This document shows positions 49,616 to 62,831 of a stretch of 64,000 nucleotides of DNA, piece by piece. Each line of letters starts with the position of its first letter. The stretch's first letter is position 1. The notes below the pieces were generated by a model. It did no database searches, was not told the DNA's origin, and worked only from the letters and a program-made list of their open reading frames with translations. Source of the DNA: Elusimicrobiota bacterium (GTDB lineage: Bacteria > Elusimicrobiota > Elusimicrobia > UBA1565 > UBA9628); contig DAHZHT010000005.1 in the NCBI GenBank assembly GCA_027406905.1, positions 50,080-114,079 of the forward strand. The letters run 5' to 3'. A program made the translations under genes and the position numbers.

Positions 49616-50491
49616 ATGAAATCATCTTCTAACAAAAAAGCTAAGGTAGGAATTATCGGGGGAAGCGGCCTTTATGATATGGACGGATTCTCCAACAAGC
49701 GCCTGCTTAAGATAAAAACCCCTTTTGGGGAGCCTTCCGCTCCCTTGATTTTAGGCGAGATTTCCGGAGTTCCCTGCGCTTTTTTGGCGCGGCACGGAAA
49801 TGGACACACCGTTTTGCCGCAAGAAATCAATGTGCGGGCCAATATCTGGGCGCTTAAATCGGTCGGCGTTGAACGATTGATCGGGATCACCGCAGTCGGA
49901 TCTTTAAAAGAAGAAATCGCTCCGCGGCATTTCGTTTTTCCAGACCAGATTTTTGATCTGACCCATGGCCGCGCCGCCACTTTCTTTGGAAACGGAATCG
50001 TCGCCCACACGGCTTTTCACACCCCGTTTTGCCTCGATCAATCAAAAATTCTTTTTGAAAAATCAAAAGCCCTGGGAGTTTCGACTCATCAAGGAGGAAC
50101 CTACCTCTGCATGCAGGGGCCTCTTTTTTCGACCAAGGCCGAATCACGTTTCTACAAGGGTCTCGGATTCTCCGTCATCGGCATGACGGCCGCAACCGAG
50201 GCAAAACTCGCCAGAGAAGCAGAACTGTGTTATTCCCTAATCAGCCTGGTCACCGATTATGATTGTTGGAAAGACGGAGAAGAAGTTTCCGCCGACATCG
50301 TGACCTCCGTCATGCATGACAATTCCAAGAACGCTCAAAAGCTTCTTATTTCGGCTATCTCCGATATCGCCAAGCGCGATCCCCAATGCTCTTGCCCCCA
50401 AGCCATGAAACACTCAATTGTCACCGCTCCAAAAGCCATTAAGCCTTCGGCGAAAAAGAAACTGTCCTTGATTATTGGGAAATATATTTAA
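49616..50491 (+). CDS. mtnP: S-methyl-5'-thioadenosine phosphorylase / PNP-family
   Basis: VGIIGGSGLY...ARHGNGH...VIGMTAATEAKLAREAE. Confidence 0.85.
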   Translation: MKSSSNKKAKVGIIGGSGLYDMDGFSNKRLLKIKTPFGEPSAPLILGEISGVPCAFLARHGNGHTVLPQEINVRANIWALKSVGVERLIGITAVGSLKEEIAPRHFVFPDQIFDLTHGRAATFFGNGIVAHTAFHTPFCLDQSKILFEKSKALGVSTHQGGTYLCMQGPLFSTKAESRFYKGLGFSVIGMTAATEAKLAREAELCYSLISLVTDYDCWKDGEEVSADIVTSVMHDNSKNAQKLLISAISDIAKRDPQCSCPQAMKHSIVTAPKAIKPSAKKKLSLIIGKYI

Positions 50492-52775: not shown

Positions 52776-53357
52776 ATGCCGAAAGCGACCCTGTCTTGCC
52801 CCAATCTAATAGATTGTTCCCCTCAAAGCCCGCGCATTAGCGGACCATGGGCTATTTTTACGACCCCTTATTTCCCGCTGGCGATGACGACTCTTACCGC
52901 CGGAAGCGCGATCTGGGATGGAGCCCAAACGCGCTTTGGAAAAACTCTTTGGCAAAGTCTTGATTCCGCCGTTATCGCCTCTGTTTCCAACACCGGAATG
53001 AAATATGCCTTCCAAAGGGCCCGGCCGACCCAGGACCTCGGAGCCAACGCCTGGTTTTCCGGGCCTCAGAGCCAAAGTTTTCCCTCCAGCGACGTGTCTA
53101 ACACTGCGGCCCTTGTCTCTCCTTTTATTTATGAATACGGATCGGATCATCCGATGGTGTATCTTTTGACTCTTTTGCCCGTGGCGGACGCGGCAGCCCG
53201 AGTAGAAGCGCGCGGGCATTACCCGACAGACACTATTGGCGGCATGGCCTTAGGTTTTGCCAGCGGCTGGGCGGCCAGGCATTTTTTCAAATCGCCGTTT
53301 ACCTTGCAGATTATTCCGGGGAGAGACTGGTCTGTTGGAATATCGCGAAAATTCTAA
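52776..53357 (+). CDS. PAP2-family phosphatase (lipid phosphate phosphatase-like)
   Basis: KYAFQRARP (KX6RP) and ARVEARGHYPTD (SRX5HX3D-like). Start moved from the ORF-track TTG at 52425, which overlaps accC, to the first internal ATG. That coordinate is plus or minus 1 nt. Confidence 0.6.
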   Translation: MPKATLSCPNLIDCSPQSPRISGPWAIFTTPYFPLAMTTLTAGSAIWDGAQTRFGKTLWQSLDSAVIASVSNTGMKYAFQRARPTQDLGANAWFSGPQSQSFPSSDVSNTAALVSPFIYEYGSDHPMVYLLTLLPVADAAARVEARGHYPTDTIGGMALGFASGWAARHFFKSPFTLQIIPGRDWSVGISRKF

Positions 53358-54040
53358 TTAGCGGAATCTTCTAGGACAAATTGAAAAGTCGTCCCGCCGC
53401 AAACGATAATATCTCCGTCCTTTAAGAGGGTAGCGGCGGTGATTTTCTCGCCATTGACAAGGGGATATCCGGAAACGACCGGAATTAAGACATACCCCTC
53501 GGGTTTGCGGTAAATAGAAGCGACCACCTCGGGAGCCGAGCCGAAAAACCCCGTTCCTTTAATGGGGATTTGAACGCGATCGGATTTGCCGATATAGGTT
53601 GAAAGTCCTTTAAGCTCGTAATCAGGCGGGCCCTCCAAGCCCTTTAACACCCGCAAGCGTCCGAGTTTGGACGGAGTTTTGGCCGACTGAGCCAGAATTT
53701 CGGATTGTTTCTCCGGAGTTAGGAAAACAGTTTTATCTCCCGCTGCGGGAGCGGGATCTCGGATAAAGACCAATGAGTGTTTGGCGATTCCAATAACGTC
53801 TTCATGATGAAGCCCGCATTTTTTAATTCGCTTTTCATTGACATAGGTTCCATTGGTCGAATCGAGGTCCTCGACATAATAGGTTTCTCCTTCCAGCGTA
53901 ATTTTACAGTGATTGGAAGAGATGGCGGGATTGTCAATGACAATATCGTTATTCGGGGCTCTCCCAACCAGGAGAGGGCCTTTATTTAAATTGATTTCCT
54001 TAAGCACCGCCACGTTAAACTTAAGAAGAAGCTTTGGCAT
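53354..54040 (-). CDS. tandem FHA-domain protein
   Basis: N-terminal FHA: LLVGRAPNNDIVIDNPAISSNHCKI...YVEDLDSTNGTYVN. A second, degenerate FHA-like domain lies in the C-terminal half. Confidence 0.75.
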   Translation of the reverse strand: MPKLLLKFNVAVLKEINLNKGPLLVGRAPNNDIVIDNPAISSNHCKITLEGETYYVEDLDSTNGTYVNEKRIKKCGLHHEDVIGIAKHSLVFIRDPAPAAGDKTVFLTPEKQSEILAQSAKTPSKLGRLRVLKGLEGPPDYELKGLSTYIGKSDRVQIPIKGTGFFGSAPEVVASIYRKPEGYVLIPVVSGYPLVNGEKITAATLLKDGDIIVCGGTTFQFVLEDSAN

Positions 54041-54839
54041 TCTTTCCTTTAAGGATCGATTTCATTTTAGACCACGAAGCCCCCAAGGCCGATTTTTCTC
54101 CGCCTTGTTCCACTCGGGCGACTACAACCGTGATATTATCAATTCCACCGGCTCCATTCGCTTCCGAAACCAAATTCGCGGCCATATTTTTAACGTCTTC
54201 TTGGCGCGATAAAATTTCTTGGATACGAAAATCCGCGACCATTTTAGTGAGCCCATCAGAAGCCAGTAAAATGATGTCCCTATAAAAGAGAGGGTGCGTG
54301 GAAACATCGACTTCCACATCCGGGTTAGAGCCCACCGCGCGAGTTAAAAGATTTTGAAGTTCTGAAGTTGCGGCTTCTTCTTCACGGAGAAGACCTCTTC
54401 TGATTTGTTCCCGGACGACGGAGTGATCTTCGGTCAGGCAGGATAACACGCCTTGCCTTAAAATATATCCGCGGCTGTCTCCCACATGCGCGATGGTCAA
54501 GGTCTTCCCATCGCCGCAAGCGCACACAAGAGTGGTTCCCATTCCGGCATCCTTGCTCATCAAGCGCCCTTTTTCATAGACAAGTCTGTTGGCCGCTTTA
54601 ACCGCAGCCTCTAAATCGGCGGCGGAAACCCGGTATTCATCATCAGAACATTTCTGTATCAAAAAATCTTTTACTAAAGAAACCGCCAAAGAGCTTGCCA
54701 CCTCTCCGGAATTGTGCCCACCCATCCCGTCGGCGACGATAAAAATACCTTTATTGCCGTCGAAGAAAAATGAGTCCTCGTTATTATTTCTTACCCGTCC
54801 AATATCTGTCAGCCCCGCCGCTTGAAAAAGAGGCTTCAT
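54021..54839 (-). CDS. PP2C-family Ser/Thr phosphatase
   Basis: GLTDIGRVRNNNED, IVADGMGGHNSGEVAS, DGLT. Confidence 0.85.
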   Translation of the reverse strand: MKPLFQAAGLTDIGRVRNNNEDSFFFDGNKGIFIVADGMGGHNSGEVASSLAVSLVKDFLIQKCSDDEYRVSAADLEAAVKAANRLVYEKGRLMSKDAGMGTTLVCACGDGKTLTIAHVGDSRGYILRQGVLSCLTEDHSVVREQIRRGLLREEEAATSELQNLLTRAVGSNPDVEVDVSTHPLFYRDIILLASDGLTKMVADFRIQEILSRQEDVKNMAANLVSEANGAGGIDNITVVVARVEQGGEKSALGASWSKMKSILKGKNAKASS

Positions 54840-57406
54840 GCCTGGACCTTAAGAACTCCGTAGCAAGCGCGGATATCGCGGGCCAACTCCGCCGCGCTTT
54901 GATATCTCGCCTCCGGGTTTTTTGCCAAACCCCGGTTTAAAATCGCCGACACCGATGGCGGAAGAGAAGGCGCGATCGAAAGAGGATCGGGATGGGGATC
55001 GTTGGCGATTTGAAAGAGAAGCGCCCCAATTCCATCTCCTCCTTTAAACGGCTTTTCTCCGGTCAAAAGTTCAAAAAGAACCACGCTGAGGGAAAAAATA
55101 TCCGAGCGCCCATCGACTTTTTTTCCAGCGACCTGCTCAGGACTCATATAAGCGGGCGTTCCCATCACGGTTCCAGTCGCCGTCTTAGAAGAGGTCATGA
55201 CGCGGGCGATTCCAAAATCAGCGACGCGAAGACTTCCGTCTTTGAGAATCATGATATTAGCGGGTTTAATATCTCGATGGACAACTCCCTGCTGATGGGC
55301 ATAGGCCAAAGCGTCCGCCACGGTCGCGACATATTCCATCGCCGATTTCAGTGGAATCAAATGCCCCTTTTCAGTGTAAGCCGCTAAACTTTGCCCTTCC
55401 AAAAACTCCATGGCGATATAGGCCACGTCATCTTCTTCTCCGGCGTCAAAAATGCGGATGATATTGGGATGATTTAATTTCCCCGCCGCCTCCGCTTCCC
55501 GGAAAAATCTCTCTTTAATTTCCTTGACGGATTGAGGATCCGCCTCTTCTCCAAGGCTCATCGTCTTAATCGCGACCCAACGGTTAATTTTAGGGTCCTT
55601 GCCTAAATAGACAATCCCCATCGCGCCGCGGCCCAATTCTTTTTGAATTTCGTATCGGCCCAGGGTTGGCTTGGCCGCTCCCGCGGCGATGACGACGGTT
55701 CCTTCCTTTTTAGAGCCGATAGAGCTCTTTAAAACCGCCCCACTGGCGGCGGATTTAAGAACCGTCATTTTAGATTGAATATCTTTATACTTGGGGTCTT
55801 TCTTAGCGATCAAATCCAAAACCGAAGCGGCCTTGGCGAATTGCCTCTTTCGCTCAAAATCCAAGGCGAGATTGTAAAGGATTTCCTTCATCGCCTCATC
55901 CAGAGGACATAGGCGAAACTTCTCAAAAGCGAGATCGAGCATCCCTTGCCCCTGAAAGGAAAGTCCCAGCATCTTATTGGTCTCAATGGCGGAAGCCTCA
56001 ACCAATTCCTTGCCTTTTTCGGTCACAAAAAATCGCCGGACAACCCCAATCAAATATCCTAAAGCCAGTAAAACGGCCGGATAGCTGGTTTTAACCCATT
56101 CCCCTAGAAGGAAAAAATAACTTCCCGCGCCCAAAATGAACACAAACAATATAAAACTCAGCGCAAAACCCCAGAAAGCGGAAAGAAAAGGCAACGCTAG
56201 GATCACAAAAGCCCCAACCAAGGCAATCAAGCCCCATTCTAATTTGGGCGCCCACGGCGGGCGGGAGATAAAGCGATTTTCCAAAATATTAGAGGTAATA
56301 TTGGCCAGGACCTCGACCGGCGGAATTAAAGGGGCCAAGGGAGTGGCATATGGAGTAGCGATGCCGGTGGCAGTGAGGCCCACCAGGACAATCTTATTTT
56401 TAAACGCCTCCATATCCACGTGTCCATCCATCACGTCGCTAAAAGAATAGTATCTAAAGGTTCGATAAGGCCCATTAAACAAGATCATCATCTGGCTTTT
56501 GGAATTGAGAGGAATATGGGTCTGGGCAAAATCGACGGATTGACCTTGAGAAAAAGTCGCCGAAGAGGGCGATAATTTCTCGAAAGCCAAGGCCAGGGCC
56601 AAGGAATAGGCCGGAATATAGGAATTTTTATAGCGCATGACGGGATAAACCCGCCTTAAAATTCCATCGGAGTCCGGTTTTAGATTGGCGTGTCCAACGC
56701 CAAGGGCGGCTTGAGCGAAAATAGCGATTGGATACGCCGGATCAAAGCCCTTTGGGATGAGCGATTGGTTCATGCCAGGCGTCACCGCCAAACGAACGCT
56801 CGCGCTTGAAAATAGAGGAGGAGTCGCTGCGGCTTGGGAATGTTCATATCCTCTTTCGGTAAAAACAAGCGGCAAAACGACATTCCCGGATTTTTCAATC
56901 GCCGAGGCCAGGCGCGCATCCGCATCTAAGCGAACTTCCTCGGATGAAATCAAGGCCTCAAATAAATGATGCTGATCAAAAATTTTGCGAGATGAGGTCA
57001 AGCGCTGGTAATTCTCGCTAATGGTTTGAAGAGCCTTGATGCCGCGGTCATTTTCCGGTTCGGAATAGATAATATCAAGGCCGATAACTCCCGCCTGCGC
57101 CTCTTTGAGCTTATCCAAGAGTTTCGCAATTCTGGTTCGAGGCCAGGGCCAGCGCCCCAACTGCTCAATTGAATTATTGTCAATCGCGATAATGGCCATT
57201 TCCCGGCCGGAGCTCAAGTCCTGGCGAAGAGTGGACCTCCAGTCATAGAATTTGCGCTCAAAAGACCTAAAAGCGGGAAAGGCCGCAGGAAAGCGATAGC
57301 CCAAAGAAACGCAGGAGGTCAAAAAAACCCCTAATAAAAGATCCCAGACAAGTCCTTTCTTTCTCAACATTATTTTAAGGCCGCTTCCAAAAGTGTAGCG
57401 GAACAA
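54836..57406 (-). CDS. CHASE2-sensor transmembrane Ser/Thr protein kinase
   Basis: C-terminal Hanks kinase with GRGAMGIVYLG, VAIK, HRDIKPANIM and DFGIAR. N-terminal ~400-aa extracytoplasmic CHASE2-like region followed by TM helices. ATGA overlap with the PP2C gene. Confidence 0.85.
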   Translation of the reverse strand: MFRYTFGSGLKIMLRKKGLVWDLLLGVFLTSCVSLGYRFPAAFPAFRSFERKFYDWRSTLRQDLSSGREMAIIAIDNNSIEQLGRWPWPRTRIAKLLDKLKEAQAGVIGLDIIYSEPENDRGIKALQTISENYQRLTSSRKIFDQHHLFEALISSEEVRLDADARLASAIEKSGNVVLPLVFTERGYEHSQAAATPPLFSSASVRLAVTPGMNQSLIPKGFDPAYPIAIFAQAALGVGHANLKPDSDGILRRVYPVMRYKNSYIPAYSLALALAFEKLSPSSATFSQGQSVDFAQTHIPLNSKSQMMILFNGPYRTFRYYSFSDVMDGHVDMEAFKNKIVLVGLTATGIATPYATPLAPLIPPVEVLANITSNILENRFISRPPWAPKLEWGLIALVGAFVILALPFLSAFWGFALSFILFVFILGAGSYFFLLGEWVKTSYPAVLLALGYLIGVVRRFFVTEKGKELVEASAIETNKMLGLSFQGQGMLDLAFEKFRLCPLDEAMKEILYNLALDFERKRQFAKAASVLDLIAKKDPKYKDIQSKMTVLKSAASGAVLKSSIGSKKEGTVVIAAGAAKPTLGRYEIQKELGRGAMGIVYLGKDPKINRWVAIKTMSLGEEADPQSVKEIKERFFREAEAAGKLNHPNIIRIFDAGEEDDVAYIAMEFLEGQSLAAYTEKGHLIPLKSAMEYVATVADALAYAHQQGVVHRDIKPANIMILKDGSLRVADFGIARVMTSSKTATGTVMGTPAYMSPEQVAGKKVDGRSDIFSLSVVLFELLTGEKPFKGGDGIGALLFQIANDPHPDPLSIAPSLPPSVSAILNRGLAKNPEARYQSAAELARDIRACYGVLKVQA

Positions 57407-57519
57407 TCGCTTTCTGTCAACCCGAAATTTTAGGCCGCTTAGGTAAAAATAGCCCAGAATTGAGCGGCAGGAATATCAAAACTATTGACAACATCCGCAG
57501 CTCCTGCAATACTAAATTG

Positions 57520-59499
57520 ATGTTTCCAAAGAGACTCCTTCTGTTTTGGGCGCTGGCGATTTTAATTTTTGGCGGCGTCCCTCATCTTTTCGCGAAAGAT
57601 TCATCACAACCTCTCAATCTCCAGACCCTCGCCATTCCAAAAGCGGAAAAAAATAATTTCCTCTGCCTTGGCTACCGCTTTGAAGCGGAGCATCTCCGCG
57701 CGCCGGATGGGCATCTAGTCACCGAGGAAGAATACGCCCAAGACACAAAACAAGCCTTTAATTACAAGCGTTGGATCAAATCCTTTCTCTCAAAACAGAA
57801 GTCCTCGATATCCCCTGATCAGGAAGAATCAGAAATGGGAGGGAGACTGGTCAATCACAACTACCGTCTCGATCCCGAAACCGCGCATGTCCTTTCGCCG
57901 GAATACCGGGCTCTCGACATTATTGAAGGAAAATGTCTGTTTAGGCGCTTATTCAGCGCGCGGTCAAGCCACCTTTCCCAAACATCCATCGAAAGCGCTG
58001 CGGCGGAAATCGGCTATACCCAAAAGATCTGCGCTCAGTTCCCCGAATCTTGCGCCCAGCAAAAAAAACTTCTCGAGAAAAAACTAAATCTCTTCGCGGC
58101 CCAGGACCCCGCGCTTAAAAGACTCCTCAAATCAGATCCTAATTTCCAAGCGAATCTCATGGGCGCCTACCAAAAACTCCGAGCGCGGTTTGATGGAGAA
58201 CAAAAGCCCTCTTCGCTCATTAATAGGGCTCTCGGAAAATATTCGACCAACCTAGAACCTCTTCCCGCTTACAATGCTCGGGAGAATTTCATCAGCCACT
58301 CTCTCCAAAAACAGGTAATCGCCAAACTTTCGCGCAATCCGGAGGGACACAAGGTTTTAGAACGCCTTAAGGTCAACGGCAAAATCGTCCTTCCTCCTAT
58401 TTTTGTCTTGGAAACCCGCAATTCGGGAGCGTTTTACCAGTGGACTCCGCAAGGAGATCGCGTGGTTTTAAACGCCGACTATGTTTTTGAAGGGCTACCT
58501 AACGAGAAAAAACTGATCTCTGATTTTAGAGCCGGGAATCGCTATCTCGCGAAGCACCCCGAAGCTCTCAAGGGCTATCTCGAGAAATACGACAATGTTT
58601 TAGCTCATGAACTCACCCATACCTGGCAGGAAAGAAAGGATCATTTGAGTTCTCTCGCTTCTGTCAATCTCCTGCCCGGACGCGACTATATTGAAGAGGA
58701 GAAAGAAGCTTTTTTAACCGAAGCGCGCTATCTCTCATATGCCGCGCTTAAAAACCCGAAGAAAGCCATGGAGCGCCCTTATTTCTATGGAAGAGTCCTT
58801 CCCTTCCTTCACAACCCCCGGCAATTTTCGGACAGCGTCCAAGATACCTATATGTTTCTCTATGGTTCAAATGTCGCGACTTTTAAAACCGCCGAAAAAA
58901 TCACGTGGGAACAAAAAGAGATTGATAAAAATCTGGCCGCTCCCCCGCCCGAGGCAAGCGTCTTAACCGCGTCTCTTTCAGCCACAGACGCTCAAAAAAT
59001 AACCCGCTGGCTTAAAGCAAAACTTAGTCTCGCCAGCGACTCTAAGGAGTTTGCCAAAGCAAGCTCCCTCAGCCGCGATTATGACAGGCGAATAGGAAAA
59101 TTAATCGCCGACTCCGGCGGGTTGATACAAAAAACGACAAGAAAACTCGGAGAATGGGATACGGCTCAGGCGTTTAAAGCGCGAAATCCTTATATCAAGA
59201 TTGGCTACTTAACGGACGCAATGCGGTATGGTAAAAACACGGCGCCGGAAATAGATTCTCTTCTTAAAAAGAAAGGCCTCCGCCGCGACCAGGCGGTAAA
59301 GGAGATGATTCATTTGGCAAAAAATATGGCGCTTAAAAGTCATGGGACCGAATCAAGCAGTCAAGCGATTAATTTTCGCGACCTCCTCCAAGGAGTTCAG
59401 TATTTACGCGCCTCATCCGCAGGCGAAATATCTTCTCAAATTAATTGGATATGGTCCTGCGGCGCCTATGGGAAAAATTGCGAGCGCTTGGAAAAATGA
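57520..59499 (+). CDS. secreted hypothetical protein with HExxH(+E) zinc-metallopeptidase-like motif
   Basis: Signal peptide MFPKRLLLFWALAILIFGGVPHLFA. VLAHELTHTWQ with EEEKEAF about 28 aa downstream. No wider family recognised. Confidence 0.45.
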   Translation: MFPKRLLLFWALAILIFGGVPHLFAKDSSQPLNLQTLAIPKAEKNNFLCLGYRFEAEHLRAPDGHLVTEEEYAQDTKQAFNYKRWIKSFLSKQKSSISPDQEESEMGGRLVNHNYRLDPETAHVLSPEYRALDIIEGKCLFRRLFSARSSHLSQTSIESAAAEIGYTQKICAQFPESCAQQKKLLEKKLNLFAAQDPALKRLLKSDPNFQANLMGAYQKLRARFDGEQKPSSLINRALGKYSTNLEPLPAYNARENFISHSLQKQVIAKLSRNPEGHKVLERLKVNGKIVLPPIFVLETRNSGAFYQWTPQGDRVVLNADYVFEGLPNEKKLISDFRAGNRYLAKHPEALKGYLEKYDNVLAHELTHTWQERKDHLSSLASVNLLPGRDYIEEEKEAFLTEARYLSYAALKNPKKAMERPYFYGRVLPFLHNPRQFSDSVQDTYMFLYGSNVATFKTAEKITWEQKEIDKNLAAPPPEASVLTASLSATDAQKITRWLKAKLSLASDSKEFAKASSLSRDYDRRIGKLIADSGGLIQKTTRKLGEWDTAQAFKARNPYIKIGYLTDAMRYGKNTAPEIDSLLKKKGLRRDQAVKEMIHLAKNMALKSHGTESSSQAINFRDLLQGVQYLRASSAGEISSQINWIWSCGAYGKNCERLEK

Positions 59500-60113
59500 T
59501 AAAAAAAACGCTGCCGTTTTTATTACTGATCGCTCTACTCTGGGCGGCATGTTCTAAAGGCTCCGCGGGAACTCCTAAAAAAAATGGAAATCAAGCGGAA
59601 AACGCCGAAGTTATCTACTCGGATCCCCAGCGCTCTTTCTCTTGCTCAATTCCCGGTTCTTGGGGGGTTGACGAAACGGAAGCCGGCGGGATTTACTCAA
59701 CCGTTAATTTTCACAGTCCGGGGCAAACATCCACGATCCGGATCGAGCGCTATATCAAAGGAACGGTTGCCGGGAATGACACGCCCAAGGAGTACATCCG
59801 CAACAGGCGGCTTGACGCGATGGAGCCAGAGACCGGCGGCTATTTTCGCGAAAAACCTTTCCCCCTCCGAAACAAGAAGGGATTTCATTTCGTAACGGTC
59901 GAGGCAGTCCCCCAAATGCCTCAGCCCTGGAACGGAACAAAGGAAGCCTATGGAACCAAGACGACCGCCTTGCGCGATGAAGAAGTCGTCTTGCCGGATA
60001 CGAACGGCTTCTATGTCATCGCCTATATTTGCGATCCTAAAATCAGTTGCAATCAGGAAACTGTCTTTCAAAACGTCGTCAAGACCTTCGCTATCAATGC
60101 GGCTAAAAAGTGA
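59496..60113 (+). CDS. hypothetical lipoprotein
   Basis: Lipobox LLWAAC-S after the signal peptide. ATG overlaps the stop of the upstream HExxH gene (ATGA). Confidence 0.5.
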   Translation: MIKKTLPFLLLIALLWAACSKGSAGTPKKNGNQAENAEVIYSDPQRSFSCSIPGSWGVDETEAGGIYSTVNFHSPGQTSTIRIERYIKGTVAGNDTPKEYIRNRRLDAMEPETGGYFREKPFPLRNKKGFHFVTVEAVPQMPQPWNGTKEAYGTKTTALRDEEVVLPDTNGFYVIAYICDPKISCNQETVFQNVVKTFAINAAKK

Positions 60114-60181: not shown

Positions 60182-60652
60182 CTAGCGGCGAACCAGGAAG
60201 GTGACCCAAGAACTCTCTTCCCCAAGGTATTTTTCGTACACCAATCCCTCATTGGGAGCGTAGAATCTTTCAATGGAACCGGTGTTTTTATCGGTCGCTA
60301 CAACCTTGAGACAATGATCAACGAGTCCGCTCGGGGTTTGGATTGAGGCGTTTAAAGATTCGACGCTGCAATATGGATAGCGGCTTGAGTCGTCCCATTC
60401 GTCATGGATATTGGGAGAAGCGGGAAGAAGCAGATGCCCTCGAGAATGAACGCCCGCCCGATCTTTGATGATTTCGTAGGTGAACGGCGGGTTTCCCATC
60501 CATCTTTCCTTTATCGTGGCCACGAACTCTCCGCCATTCTGTTTGAGAGAACTCAGCTCGCGCACGGTTTGACCGATGGCGGGAGGCTCGCTGAAGGTGA
60601 TGCTGACATAAATCCAGAGTTTTCCCGAAGATAAAGGATAGTAATCAGGCAT
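60182..60652 (-). CDS. hypothetical cytoplasmic protein
   Basis: 156-aa ORF 18 nt downstream of the PLD-like gene on the same strand. No recognisable motif. Confidence 0.35.
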   Translation of the reverse strand: MPDYYPLSSGKLWIYVSITFSEPPAIGQTVRELSSLKQNGGEFVATIKERWMGNPPFTYEIIKDRAGVHSRGHLLLPASPNIHDEWDDSSRYPYCSVESLNASIQTPSGLVDHCLKVVATDKNTGSIERFYAPNEGLVYEKYLGEESSWVTFLVRR

Positions 60653-60669
60653 GAATTTCTCCCAGAAAC

Positions 60670-62643
60670 TTAACTATTTTTTGGATTTTCCGACTCCGGG
60701 TTGGGGCGAGTCGGGGTTTGCAACAAATCGGGCTCTGTTGCCATACTCCAAAGGGCCTCAAGATAATTTGTGATGGAAGCAAGGTAGCCGCCTTTAAGGT
60801 AGAGGGTATTTTCGAAATTATTGCGAGTCCCGTTGACACTCATATTGGTTGACCCTGTCGCCACGATCCCATCGCCTTTGGGATCGCCTATAACCAGCTT
60901 ATTGTGGAATAAACCATCATTGTTGAGACCCGAAATAACGCGCACCTGCGCGCCCGCTTCCTTGAGATGCCGCATGGCGGCAATCGAAGCCGCATTATGG
61001 GATTGCCGTTGATCGGCCAGAATCCGAACCGGCAGGCCGGAACCCAAACGATCCAAAAGCTCTGACATCATGGAAGGCCAAGGATAAAAAGCGAACATTC
61101 CAATGAATATTTCTTGTTTCGCGGCCTTGACAATTTGAATCCAGGCGTCATCGGTTCCTCCCTCAGGAGAAAAAGAGGCGACGGGAAGAGAAACGCCATT
61201 GAAACTTTGACCCAGCGAATCATCCGCGGGAATGGGGGATTGAATACTAGGCTCTTCGGGATCAAGATCCTCTGAAAAAGTGCGCGCGATGCTTTTCATC
61301 CAGGTAAAATTCTTTTGGTAGAGATCAATGAGTTTCTGGTCGTCAATTAAAACGACATTTTCCCAATTGCTGGCCTGGGTGTGAGCGGAATAATTGTAGG
61401 ATCCTGTCTGTAATATTCTCGAGGTTTGGCCATTGGGAAGAGGGATATTCCAAAGGCGATATTTTGAGTGTTGGATCCCGATTCTCCCCAAACCTTTTAG
61501 GATAGAAATCTGCAAGTTTTTATTTCCCGCGAGATAGGCGTCAACCAACTTTTGGAGTTGGGGACTACGAGTCTGATGGAACTCTTGATTTTCCCGTCCC
61601 ATTTTCTCAGGAAACATATTTGAATAATCCACGATAATGTCATAGGATTTCCCTTGCTTAATTCCCTCGAGTATGGAATCAACGTCTTGGTCCAAGGTCT
61701 CTTCATACATCGCGATTTGGGTTTGTTGGCTGGCAAGATTGGCGCGAGCTAAAATTGAGGGAATGTCATCTCCGACTTCTCCTCCCGGACGATTAGGGAA
61801 GAGCGTTCTCGCTACGGATTGGCCAGCAATGTTGATGGTGTCTTTTCCATCCAGAGCGGGGAAATTCAACATTCTGGAAGCCAAAGAAGAAGCTGGAATT
61901 TGTTTTTCAGCGGGCCGGTCAAGTTCCTGCGCTGCGGAAAGGTCATAGAAAGAAAAATTTCTCATGAGCTGCCAAGCATAAGACCCCTCTTTTGGATTTT
62001 GACCACTTTTCCAAAACGGTTTGAGAGTTTCAGTAATATGGCGCACTTGCGCCGAAGTCAGGTCACGACTGATGCTTTTGACCAACTCCTTCTGGCTCTT
62101 GCTGATGGCATAAATTTTGGCCAAAGGAAGGAGAGCGGCATCTAAGTCTTTTGAGGCGTTGAAGGCGCCCGGGGAAACCGAAGAATTGGTTTGTTTTTGA
62201 AATTCCTTATAATAGGCTTTTAAAGCGGAGAAAACTTTGGGGGCGGACGCTTTTTGAGCTTCTTTAAGGCGAGAAGATATTTTCGCGACTAACGCCTGGC
62301 GCGTATTTTCATCAGTTGAAGCGGCGGCCGCCGCAATGTCTTCTTTTAATTGAGAAACAGATTCCGGAGAAAGCTCATTGAGAATGGGCGAGAGTAAAAC
62401 AGGGGCTAAATAAGAATTCCGAGAGAAAATACCGAGGTCCATTCCGCCAGAATTTCCAGAAAATTCTTTCCAAGTTCCAAGGGTTTCAAAAGTAGGTAGC
62501 GCAGCGGACAGGGAACCAGAATTGAAGAGGGGCTGTGAAAACAGCGGCGACATACCAACTGGTTCCTCGCTGACCTCAGCGCTCCAGGCCACAGAAGAGA
62601 GGCAGAAAAGCAAAACAAAAATCTTAACAACAGAACGATGCAT
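60670..62643 (-). CDS. secreted phospholipase D-superfamily protein (two HKD motifs) with ~350-aa N-terminal extension
   Basis: Signal peptide MHRSVVKIFVLLFCLSSVAWSA. HKD-like motifs IQHSKYRLWN...GSYNYS and LFHNKLVIGD...GSTNMS. Confidence 0.65.
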   Translation of the reverse strand: MHRSVVKIFVLLFCLSSVAWSAEVSEEPVGMSPLFSQPLFNSGSLSAALPTFETLGTWKEFSGNSGGMDLGIFSRNSYLAPVLLSPILNELSPESVSQLKEDIAAAAASTDENTRQALVAKISSRLKEAQKASAPKVFSALKAYYKEFQKQTNSSVSPGAFNASKDLDAALLPLAKIYAISKSQKELVKSISRDLTSAQVRHITETLKPFWKSGQNPKEGSYAWQLMRNFSFYDLSAAQELDRPAEKQIPASSLASRMLNFPALDGKDTINIAGQSVARTLFPNRPGGEVGDDIPSILARANLASQQTQIAMYEETLDQDVDSILEGIKQGKSYDIIVDYSNMFPEKMGRENQEFHQTRSPQLQKLVDAYLAGNKNLQISILKGLGRIGIQHSKYRLWNIPLPNGQTSRILQTGSYNYSAHTQASNWENVVLIDDQKLIDLYQKNFTWMKSIARTFSEDLDPEEPSIQSPIPADDSLGQSFNGVSLPVASFSPEGGTDDAWIQIVKAAKQEIFIGMFAFYPWPSMMSELLDRLGSGLPVRILADQRQSHNAASIAAMRHLKEAGAQVRVISGLNNDGLFHNKLVIGDPKGDGIVATGSTNMSVNGTRNNFENTLYLKGGYLASITNYLEALWSMATEPDLLQTPTRPNPESENPKNS

Positions 62644-62831
62644 GGAAGGCTCCTTTGAGGCTCTTCGAAAAATCCACTCCATCCATAGATTTATTTTAAG
62701 CGATTTTGCTCAAGTTCAATAGGGCCAAAGGGCCTAGACAGGTTTCAGCAAAAGGCCTAGATGAAAAGAAGTTTGAGATGATTTGATGCGAACTCTTGAG
62801 ACTCCTTCGGTAAAAATATAGAATAGGAGTC

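Follow-up and report, generated by a model that had tools for sequence, protein, structure and literature searches.

We analyzed a 64,000-nucleotide stretch of DNA from an Elusimicrobiota bacterium (positions 50,080 to 114,079 of the forward strand of contig DAHZHT010000005.1, assembly GCA_027406905.1), hereafter referred to as the window. The analysis concerned two adjacent genes, called here gene A and gene B, that encode a putative exported zinc peptidase and a predicted lipoprotein. The positions of both genes, and of other features of the locus, are listed in Table 1. In the initial annotation, gene A was said to code for a secreted HExxH protein of 660 amino acids with a single gluzincin-like HELTH...E signature and no recognizable family, and its stop codon was said to overlap, through an ATGA, the start of a gene for a 205-amino-acid lipoprotein. 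It was further proposed that the pair could be a novel metallopeptidase and a partner acting as its inhibitor, chaperone, or anchor. The gene and its export-signal-like N-terminus were as described, but the protein is 659 amino acids long. The overlapping lipoprotein gene was read exactly where it had been placed, with a lipobox cysteine at residue 19.

Table 1. Positions of gene A, gene B and surrounding features (window coordinates)
Feature	Position	Strand	Remarks
CHASE2-domain Ser/Thr protein kinase (856 aa), PP2C phosphatase, FHA-domain protein	53354-57406	-	Divergent operon
Sigma-70-like promoter, TTGACA-17 nt-(TG)cAATACT with upstream TG	57485..57513	+	Consensus match; putative function
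Gene A	57520..59499	+	ATG start; 659 aa; predicted exported HExxH protein
Signal-peptide-like N-terminus of gene A product, aa 1-25	57520..57594	+	Read from sequence; predicted cleavage between HLFA and KD
Hairpin motif of gene A product, first copy, aa 51-67	57670-57720
Hairpin motif of gene A product, second copy, aa 114-129	57859-57906
Conserved core of gene A product, aa ~250-475	58267..58944	+	Common to whole family; from profile matches and core alignment
HELTH (H363, E364, H367)	58606..58620	+	Putative zinc ligands and catalytic base; invariant in 96 sequences
E394, within E-x-E-A-F	58699..58701	+	Putative third zinc ligand; invariant
ATGA, overlap of gene A stop and gene B start	59496..59499	+	Read in window
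Gene B	59496..60113	+	205 aa; mature product ~21 kDa (about 187 aa)
Lipobox LWAAC of gene B product	59538-59552
156-aa open reading frame of unknown family and 670-aa signal-peptide-bearing protein	60182-62682	-	Between gene B and glycosyltransferase genes

The mature gene A product is expected to be a ~72 kDa protein with an isoelectric point of 9.4. Its N-terminus, MFPKRLLLFWALAILIFGGVPHLFA followed by KDSS after the predicted cleavage site, is organized like a Sec signal peptide (n-h-c) and does not contain a lipobox. A hydrophobic N-terminal segment is also present in 74 of 95 family members. Six cysteines (positions 49, 139, 171, 178, 647, and 654) are invariant in the close clade; together with the three cysteines of the mature gene B product (positions 50, 179, and 185), they are consistent with disulfide-bonded extracytoplasmic proteins. 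HELTH, at residues 363–367, is the sole HExxH sequence in the protein, and E394 is located 27 residues C-terminal of H367. By our estimate, a lone HExxH should be found by chance in ~2% of proteins of this length.

Relatives of gene A were collected in several searches. A word-indexed search of 5.8 billion proteins returned four clusters only (P0001–P0004; P-numbers denote family proteins, and L-numbers denote loci of gene A relatives), with 93, 78, 60, and 40% identity to gene A. A profile made from these four close clusters and run against 1.84 billion cluster representatives matched 106 proteins at E ≤ 1e-3 (74 of them at E ≤ 1e-10), defining a family of ~100 clusters. The matched proteins were mostly 500–700 amino acids long, aligned to the part of gene A that we refer to as the conserved core, and nearly all contained an HExxH sequence. 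When the word-indexed search was repeated with a 96-sequence profile, the close clade only was recovered, while metagenome scans yielded a single additional locus, L018. Relatives were present in 11 species-representative genomes. Nine of these carry the label Elusimicrobia or Elusimicrobiota, and for the two closest the label is just "bacterium"; all named relatives are from Elusimicrobiota. In the source annotation, they are hypothetical proteins of Elusimicrobia or Elusimicrobiota bacteria.

The pattern of conservation within the family is centered on the HELTH...E signature. In an alignment of 96 sequences with a mean column identity of ~15%, only five columns (P292, H363, E364, H367, and E394) are invariant. 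Conservation of 90% or more is seen at G276, L343, P347, L365, Q370, E396, A397, Y404, and Y444, and the family consensus around the signature reads HELTHAWQxRR...E..RGN.P....LE.E.EAF....RY.H.KL..DP. Since the two histidines and the glutamate of HExxH and E394 account for four of the only five invariant columns in 96 relatives, the HExxH...E arrangement is not a chance motif. Judging by its sequence, the signature is of the gluzincin type, with two predicted histidine ligands and a catalytic glutamate on one helix, and a glutamate ligand 27 residues further on. The signature noted initially is real, and no feature of the family is more conserved.

No curated family could be assigned to gene A, as had been anticipated. 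Searches of Pfam gave no match that reached a gathering score, NCBIfam gave no match at all, and PDB searches with the single protein, the core profile, and the full profile revealed no relative. With the full-length profile, the only matches were designed helical repeats aligned to the C-terminal region, and these are spurious. Neither PADLOC and PHROGs nor the plasmid and phage collections contained a match. When 81 family members were scanned one by one against Pfam, none passed a gathering score. The same few families recurred below threshold, however, and almost all of them are HExxH-peptidase or putative-peptidase families. They included eCIS_core/DUF4157 (PF13699; 14 of 81 members, best E = 5e-4), Peptidase_M91 (PF14891; 13 members, best E = 3.6e-4, cutoff 25 bits), DUF6782 (PF20573; eight members, best E = 1e-3, 12–17 bits in individual scans against a cutoff of 27), Peptidase_M78 (PF06114; six members, best E = 3.2e-3, 13–15 bits against a cutoff of 22), BSP (six members), and Peptidase_M76 (two members). 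Gene A itself matched eCIS_core/DUF4157 with 13.9 bits (E = 0.061, cutoff 22) over residues 358–373 (16 residues) only, and had no match to Peptidase_M91, for which P0024 scored 16.6 bits. The M91 and M78 matches extend from the HExxH helix into the glutamate helix, while the DUF6782 matches are collinear, covering the region before HExxH in P0013 and the HExxH region in P0009. These weak matches support a zincin-like active-site region, and not membership in any of the matched families. A literature search for DUF6782 found no paper that mentions it.

Structure prediction followed by a fold search had been suggested as a way to check the proposal; it produced a confident model, and the fold searches returned no significant peptidase match. 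AlphaFold run on the 96-sequence alignment gave a mean predicted local distance difference test score (pLDDT) of 92.3 and a predicted template modelling score of 0.90; an earlier type of input, five close homologues only, gave a pLDDT of 44, and that model was discarded. In the model, the core consists of helices 253–271 and 274–282, strands 294–297, 304–309, and 312–318, short helices, and then helices 348–374 and 391–411. HELTH is inside the long helix 348–374, and E394 is on the helix that follows. This order fits a minimal gluzincin, in which a backing helix, a small sheet, an active-site helix, and a glutamate helix would succeed one another. It had been pointed out initially that the proposal would be refuted if the fold were an unrelated one with HExxH on a helix that is not catalytic. 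The predicted HExxH helix follows a small β-sheet and precedes the helix with the invariant glutamate, as is canonical. Structure comparison decided neither for nor against such a non-catalytic placement, and the invariance pattern argues strongly against it.

Outside the core, the model is helical; its N-terminal part includes two small hairpins, and ~180 amino acids at the C-terminal end form a helical region. The motif G-Y-R-x-D/E-x(3-6)-L-x-x-P is found twice in gene A, at the hairpins listed in Table 1, and, by a strict pattern, in ~45 of the 106 family members; we know of no described motif that matches it. A Foldseek comparison of the full-length model with the PDB gave no match below E = 0.1. 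The gluzincin MATCAP was ranked third, with E = 0.64 and a template modelling (TM) score of about 0.1. A fold search of BFVD returned non-significant rows only, two of which were named "lethal factor" and "IrrE".

The product of gene B begins with MIKKTLPFLLLIALLWAAC, and the cysteine of its lipobox is residue 19. The A–C pair of the lipobox is invariant in 10 diverged gene B partners, and the partner protein has ...[AG]C after a hydrophobic stretch at all 17 distinct loci. We infer from these features that gene B encodes a lipoprotein and that its product is lipidated. A word-indexed search found only close homologues of gene B. When the DNA following each of the examined family members was read, a homologous lipoprotein of ~170–220 amino acids was seen in every case. 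Conserved positions down to 20% identity are the lipobox A–C, Y41, P53, W56, and a C-terminal VF..V..F motif. Four of the 10 partners matched PsbP_2 (best E = 4.6e-6) and two matched PsbP (PF01789; cutoff 23.5 bits), all below threshold. Weak matches that are full-length and collinear were obtained for the partners at L002 (PsbP_2 positions 43–184) and L015 (PsbP positions 5–154). In a PDB profile search with gene B, PsbP chains were the only non-spurious matches, at E of about 0.9. The resemblance to PsbP appears weak but consistent, and a PsbP-like fold of the gene B product is probable. Gene B is similar to PsbP and PsbP_2 proteins in size, and, in contrast to them, has no photosystem context. 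The DUF1795 lipoprotein DcrB, which is related to the PsbP family, would be a further candidate for comparison with gene B.

The association of the two genes is constant across the family. A gene B homologue is located directly 3' of gene A in 17 of 17 distinct loci. In 16 of them, the genes overlap by four nucleotides (NTGA, with TGA as the gene A stop codon), and at the remaining locus, L009, the overlap is 11 nucleotides. ATGA overlaps between genes are common. Nevertheless, because 16 of 17 loci show the same four-nucleotide overlap between gene A and a homologous lipoprotein gene, the pairing is not due to chance, and the arrangement implies that translation of gene B is probably coupled to that of gene A. 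The two proteins also diverge in step, the A/B identities to four relatives being 93/92, 78/81, 60/73, and 40/37%. No orphan gene B was found in the loci examined. Two variations of the arrangement were seen. At L014 (449-5027), in one Elusimicrobiota metagenome-assembled genome, two tandem gene A paralogues, overlapping end to start, are followed by a single gene B. At L015 (7682-8026) and L017 (7517-7861), a 114-amino-acid open reading frame (MTLA.WL.RADALCR.GKYFEAHEELE...) overlaps the end of gene B by four nucleotides, making the coupled unit one of three genes in this clade; this frame is absent from the window.

Genes other than A and B are not conserved at these loci. Upstream neighbours vary, being an AAA ATPase gene in L002, spoVG in L005, and an open reading frame that is SMC-like (as judged by N-terminal sequence only) in L012, L013, L015, and L017. 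Given the constant pairing, the step-wise divergence, and the absence of other conserved neighbours, genes A and B can be regarded as a self-contained, co-inherited, and, in all likelihood, translationally coupled module. In character, the pair resembles an envelope housekeeping module that is passed on by vertical descent.

Taken together, the data suggest that the gene A product is a gluzincin-type zinc peptidase acting in complex with a coupled lipoprotein, the product of gene B, that tethers or regulates it; we put the probability of this reading at roughly 0.5. According to this proposal, protein A would be exported through Sec. Its zinc would be held by H363 and H367, which share a helix, and by E394 of the following helix, with E364 as the catalytic base for proteolysis. 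The catalytic core would be set between large N- and C-terminal helical domains. Protein B would be made in a fixed proportion to A by termination–reinitiation and then lipidated. In the cell envelope, it would bind A at a ratio of roughly 1:1, tethering the soluble enzyme to a membrane, and would act as an adaptor or regulator, the presumed direction of regulation being from B to A. The proposal that the pair is a novel metallopeptidase with a partner is thus borne out as far as the signature, the uncurated family, and the family-wide coupled lipoprotein are concerned, and not with regard to a peptidase fold or to the choice among inhibitor, chaperone, and anchor for the partner.

Several observations weigh against this interpretation. 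All Pfam matches of the gene A family are below gathering scores, and they mostly cover 15–55 residues around the motif. We infer the zincin fold and the metal-site geometry from motif invariance, the order of secondary-structure elements, and sub-threshold Pfam matches, because the fold searches, in which only the full-length model was compared, confirmed no peptidase. The match of gene B to PsbP_2 (PF18933) is likewise sub-threshold, at 23 bits (E = 9e-5) against a cutoff of 27. A few gene A homologues have lipobox-like N-termini of their own, so that pure anchoring by gene B would be redundant there. Finally, the genomic evidence fits a tether or adaptor and an inhibitor alike.

The principal rival, which we consider rather unlikely, is that protein B is an inhibitor lipoprotein dedicated to A and acts as a safety catch: made in a fixed ratio to A, it would silence A in the envelope of the producer until release or activation. 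Adjacent co-transcribed genes, strict pairing, and co-divergence would be expected of an inhibitor just as much as of an adaptor, and the possibility that some A homologues are themselves lipoproteins means that anchoring need not be the sole role of B. Periplasmic inhibitors of serralysins provide parallels for such a role. Another is found in the potempin/KLIKK-peptidase operons of Tannerella forsythia: as in the pair studied here, a lipoprotein gene adjoins a secreted peptidase gene and the products pair specifically, the potempins being outer-membrane lipoproteins that are encoded beside their cognate peptidases and inhibit them specifically (PMC9890683). On the other hand, potempins are 98–132 amino acids long and encoded upstream of the peptidase (PMC9890683), while mature B has ~187 amino acids and is encoded downstream. 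The locus at which two tandem A paralogues share one B also speaks against a dedicated inhibitor, as does the family to which B is weakly similar. Proteins of the PsbP type are known to serve in binding or assembly and are not known as protease inhibitors, which counts against this alternative.

Two further explanations were considered. Protein A could be a non-proteolytic zinc enzyme or a scaffold that binds zinc, acting on peptidoglycan, lipids, or glycans or having a structural role, with B as its envelope partner. Such a role would agree with the fact that no structural or above-threshold sequence link to a characterized peptidase was found. The invariant residues, however, are the exact gluzincin set, including the catalytic glutamate, and nearly all recurrent weak matches are to peptidase or putative-peptidase families; we therefore regard it as quite unlikely. 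Very improbable, in our opinion, is a toxin–immunity pair, in which A would be a secreted zincin toxin directed against bacteria or a host and B a protective periplasmic lipoprotein. The overlap of a small lipoprotein gene with the 3' end of a gene for an exported enzyme is indeed a typical effector/immunity layout, but no secretion-system, mobile-element, or polymorphic-toxin context was seen at any locus, and the neighbourhoods are housekeeping in nature and variable. There is one A–B pair per locus (or, in L014, two A and one B), orphan B genes were not found, searches for plasmid, phage, PADLOC, and PHROG matches were negative, and the pattern of divergence fits vertical descent within one phylum.

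Gluzincins (MEROPS clan MA(E)), and in particular those with a short spacer such as M78 (ImmA/IrrE), have HExxH on one helix and the glutamate on the next. At the level of sequence and predicted secondary structure, gene A shares this layout, with its putative glutamate ligand 27 residues after the second histidine and, as in gluzincins, a three-stranded sheet before the active-site helix. The E-x-E-A of gene A may correspond to the ExEAN motif of M78, a resemblance that we treat as a lead only. Family members scored against M78 well below the cutoff, as given above, and no structural match was retrieved. Moreover, M78 proteins are small cytoplasmic regulators, whereas gene A encodes a predicted exported protein of 659 amino acids with large helical flanking domains. 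The HExxHxxQ-type active-site helix of gene A is shared with eCIS_core/DUF4157, Peptidase_M91/NleD, and DUF6782, the architectures and contexts of which are different: a toxin domain of eCIS, a type III secretion effector (M91/NleD), and proteins matching a 241-position model (DUF6782).

The proposed relationship between A and B recalls that in CtpA–LbcA and Prc–NlpI, in both of which a membrane-anchored lipoprotein controls a soluble protease of the envelope or is required by it (PMC8764530, PMC6050968). CtpA and Prc are, however, serine proteases, unrelated to gene A in catalytic class and family. LbcA and NlpI belong to the tetratricopeptide repeat (TPR) lipoproteins rather than to a PsbP-like type, and translational coupling to the protease genes is not described for them. 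The helical C-terminal domain of gene A beside a predicted zincin core is reminiscent of BepA, an M48 peptidase with a TPR domain (PMC7950410). In our analysis, no homology of the pair to CtpA–LbcA, Prc–NlpI, or BepA could be detected at the level of sequence or structure. We know of no PsbP-family protein that is paired with a protease.

The pair follows known themes, those of HExxH zincins and of envelope proteases that have lipoprotein partners, and no existing concept is overturned by it; uncharacterized lineage-specific HExxH families are common. The gene A family is nevertheless absent from Pfam, NCBIfam, and the PDB, its confident model has no significant structural neighbour, and, as far as we could find, no description exists of its obligate association with a lipoprotein resembling PsbP. 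The pair is probably a new envelope protease system. Hardly any Elusimicrobiota have been brought into culture, and little is known about the biology of their envelope. The predicted exported zincin, which is conserved, single-copy, and obligately coupled to a lipoprotein, is a candidate for protein quality control or processing in the envelope of these bacteria. A bolder version of the proposal, which we put forward as possible but doubtful, is that gene A represents a new MEROPS-level peptidase family, found so far in Elusimicrobiota only, with an architecture that has no solved counterpart, and obligately dependent on a PsbP-fold lipoprotein subunit. Were this to be the case, a new family would be added to the metallopeptidase classification, and the widespread PsbP fold would acquire a role outside photosynthesis, its first one linked to a protease, as part of a new type of two-component envelope protease.

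The start region of gene A deserves separate description. A longer, TTG-initiated frame of gene A exists from position 57460; the homologues begin instead at the position of the ATG, with ATG or GTG. The sigma-70-like promoter element listed in Table 1 ends six nucleotides 5' of the start codon, and no Shine–Dalgarno sequence is visible ahead of gene A (57485-57519 region). Both hexamers and the TG of this element are unchanged among L001, L007, and L008, in contrast to the diverging intergenic DNA on either side; the element is thus kept unchanged in genomes whose A proteins share only 60% identity. Because the promoter-like element ends so close to the start codon and is kept across diverged genomes, a leaderless gene A mRNA is suggested. 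Oddly, L007 and L008 have GTG as the start codon.

In the window, the pair is flanked on both sides by genes on the opposite strand. The divergent operon for a kinase, a PP2C phosphatase, and an FHA-domain protein was considered as a family-wide functional partner of the pair and was rejected, as this context is found only in the closest relatives (L001, L006, and L007). A defence-system or phage origin of the pair was also rejected, since there was no PADLOC, PHROG, plasmid, or phage match. On the other side of the pair, the 670-amino-acid protein contains two phospholipase D (PLD)-like stretches (PLDc_2; DrmC/NucT-like). At the corresponding position, L001 and L007 lack both the gene for this double-PLD protein and the 156-amino-acid open reading frame, a difference that amounts to an insertion or deletion of ~2.9 kb.

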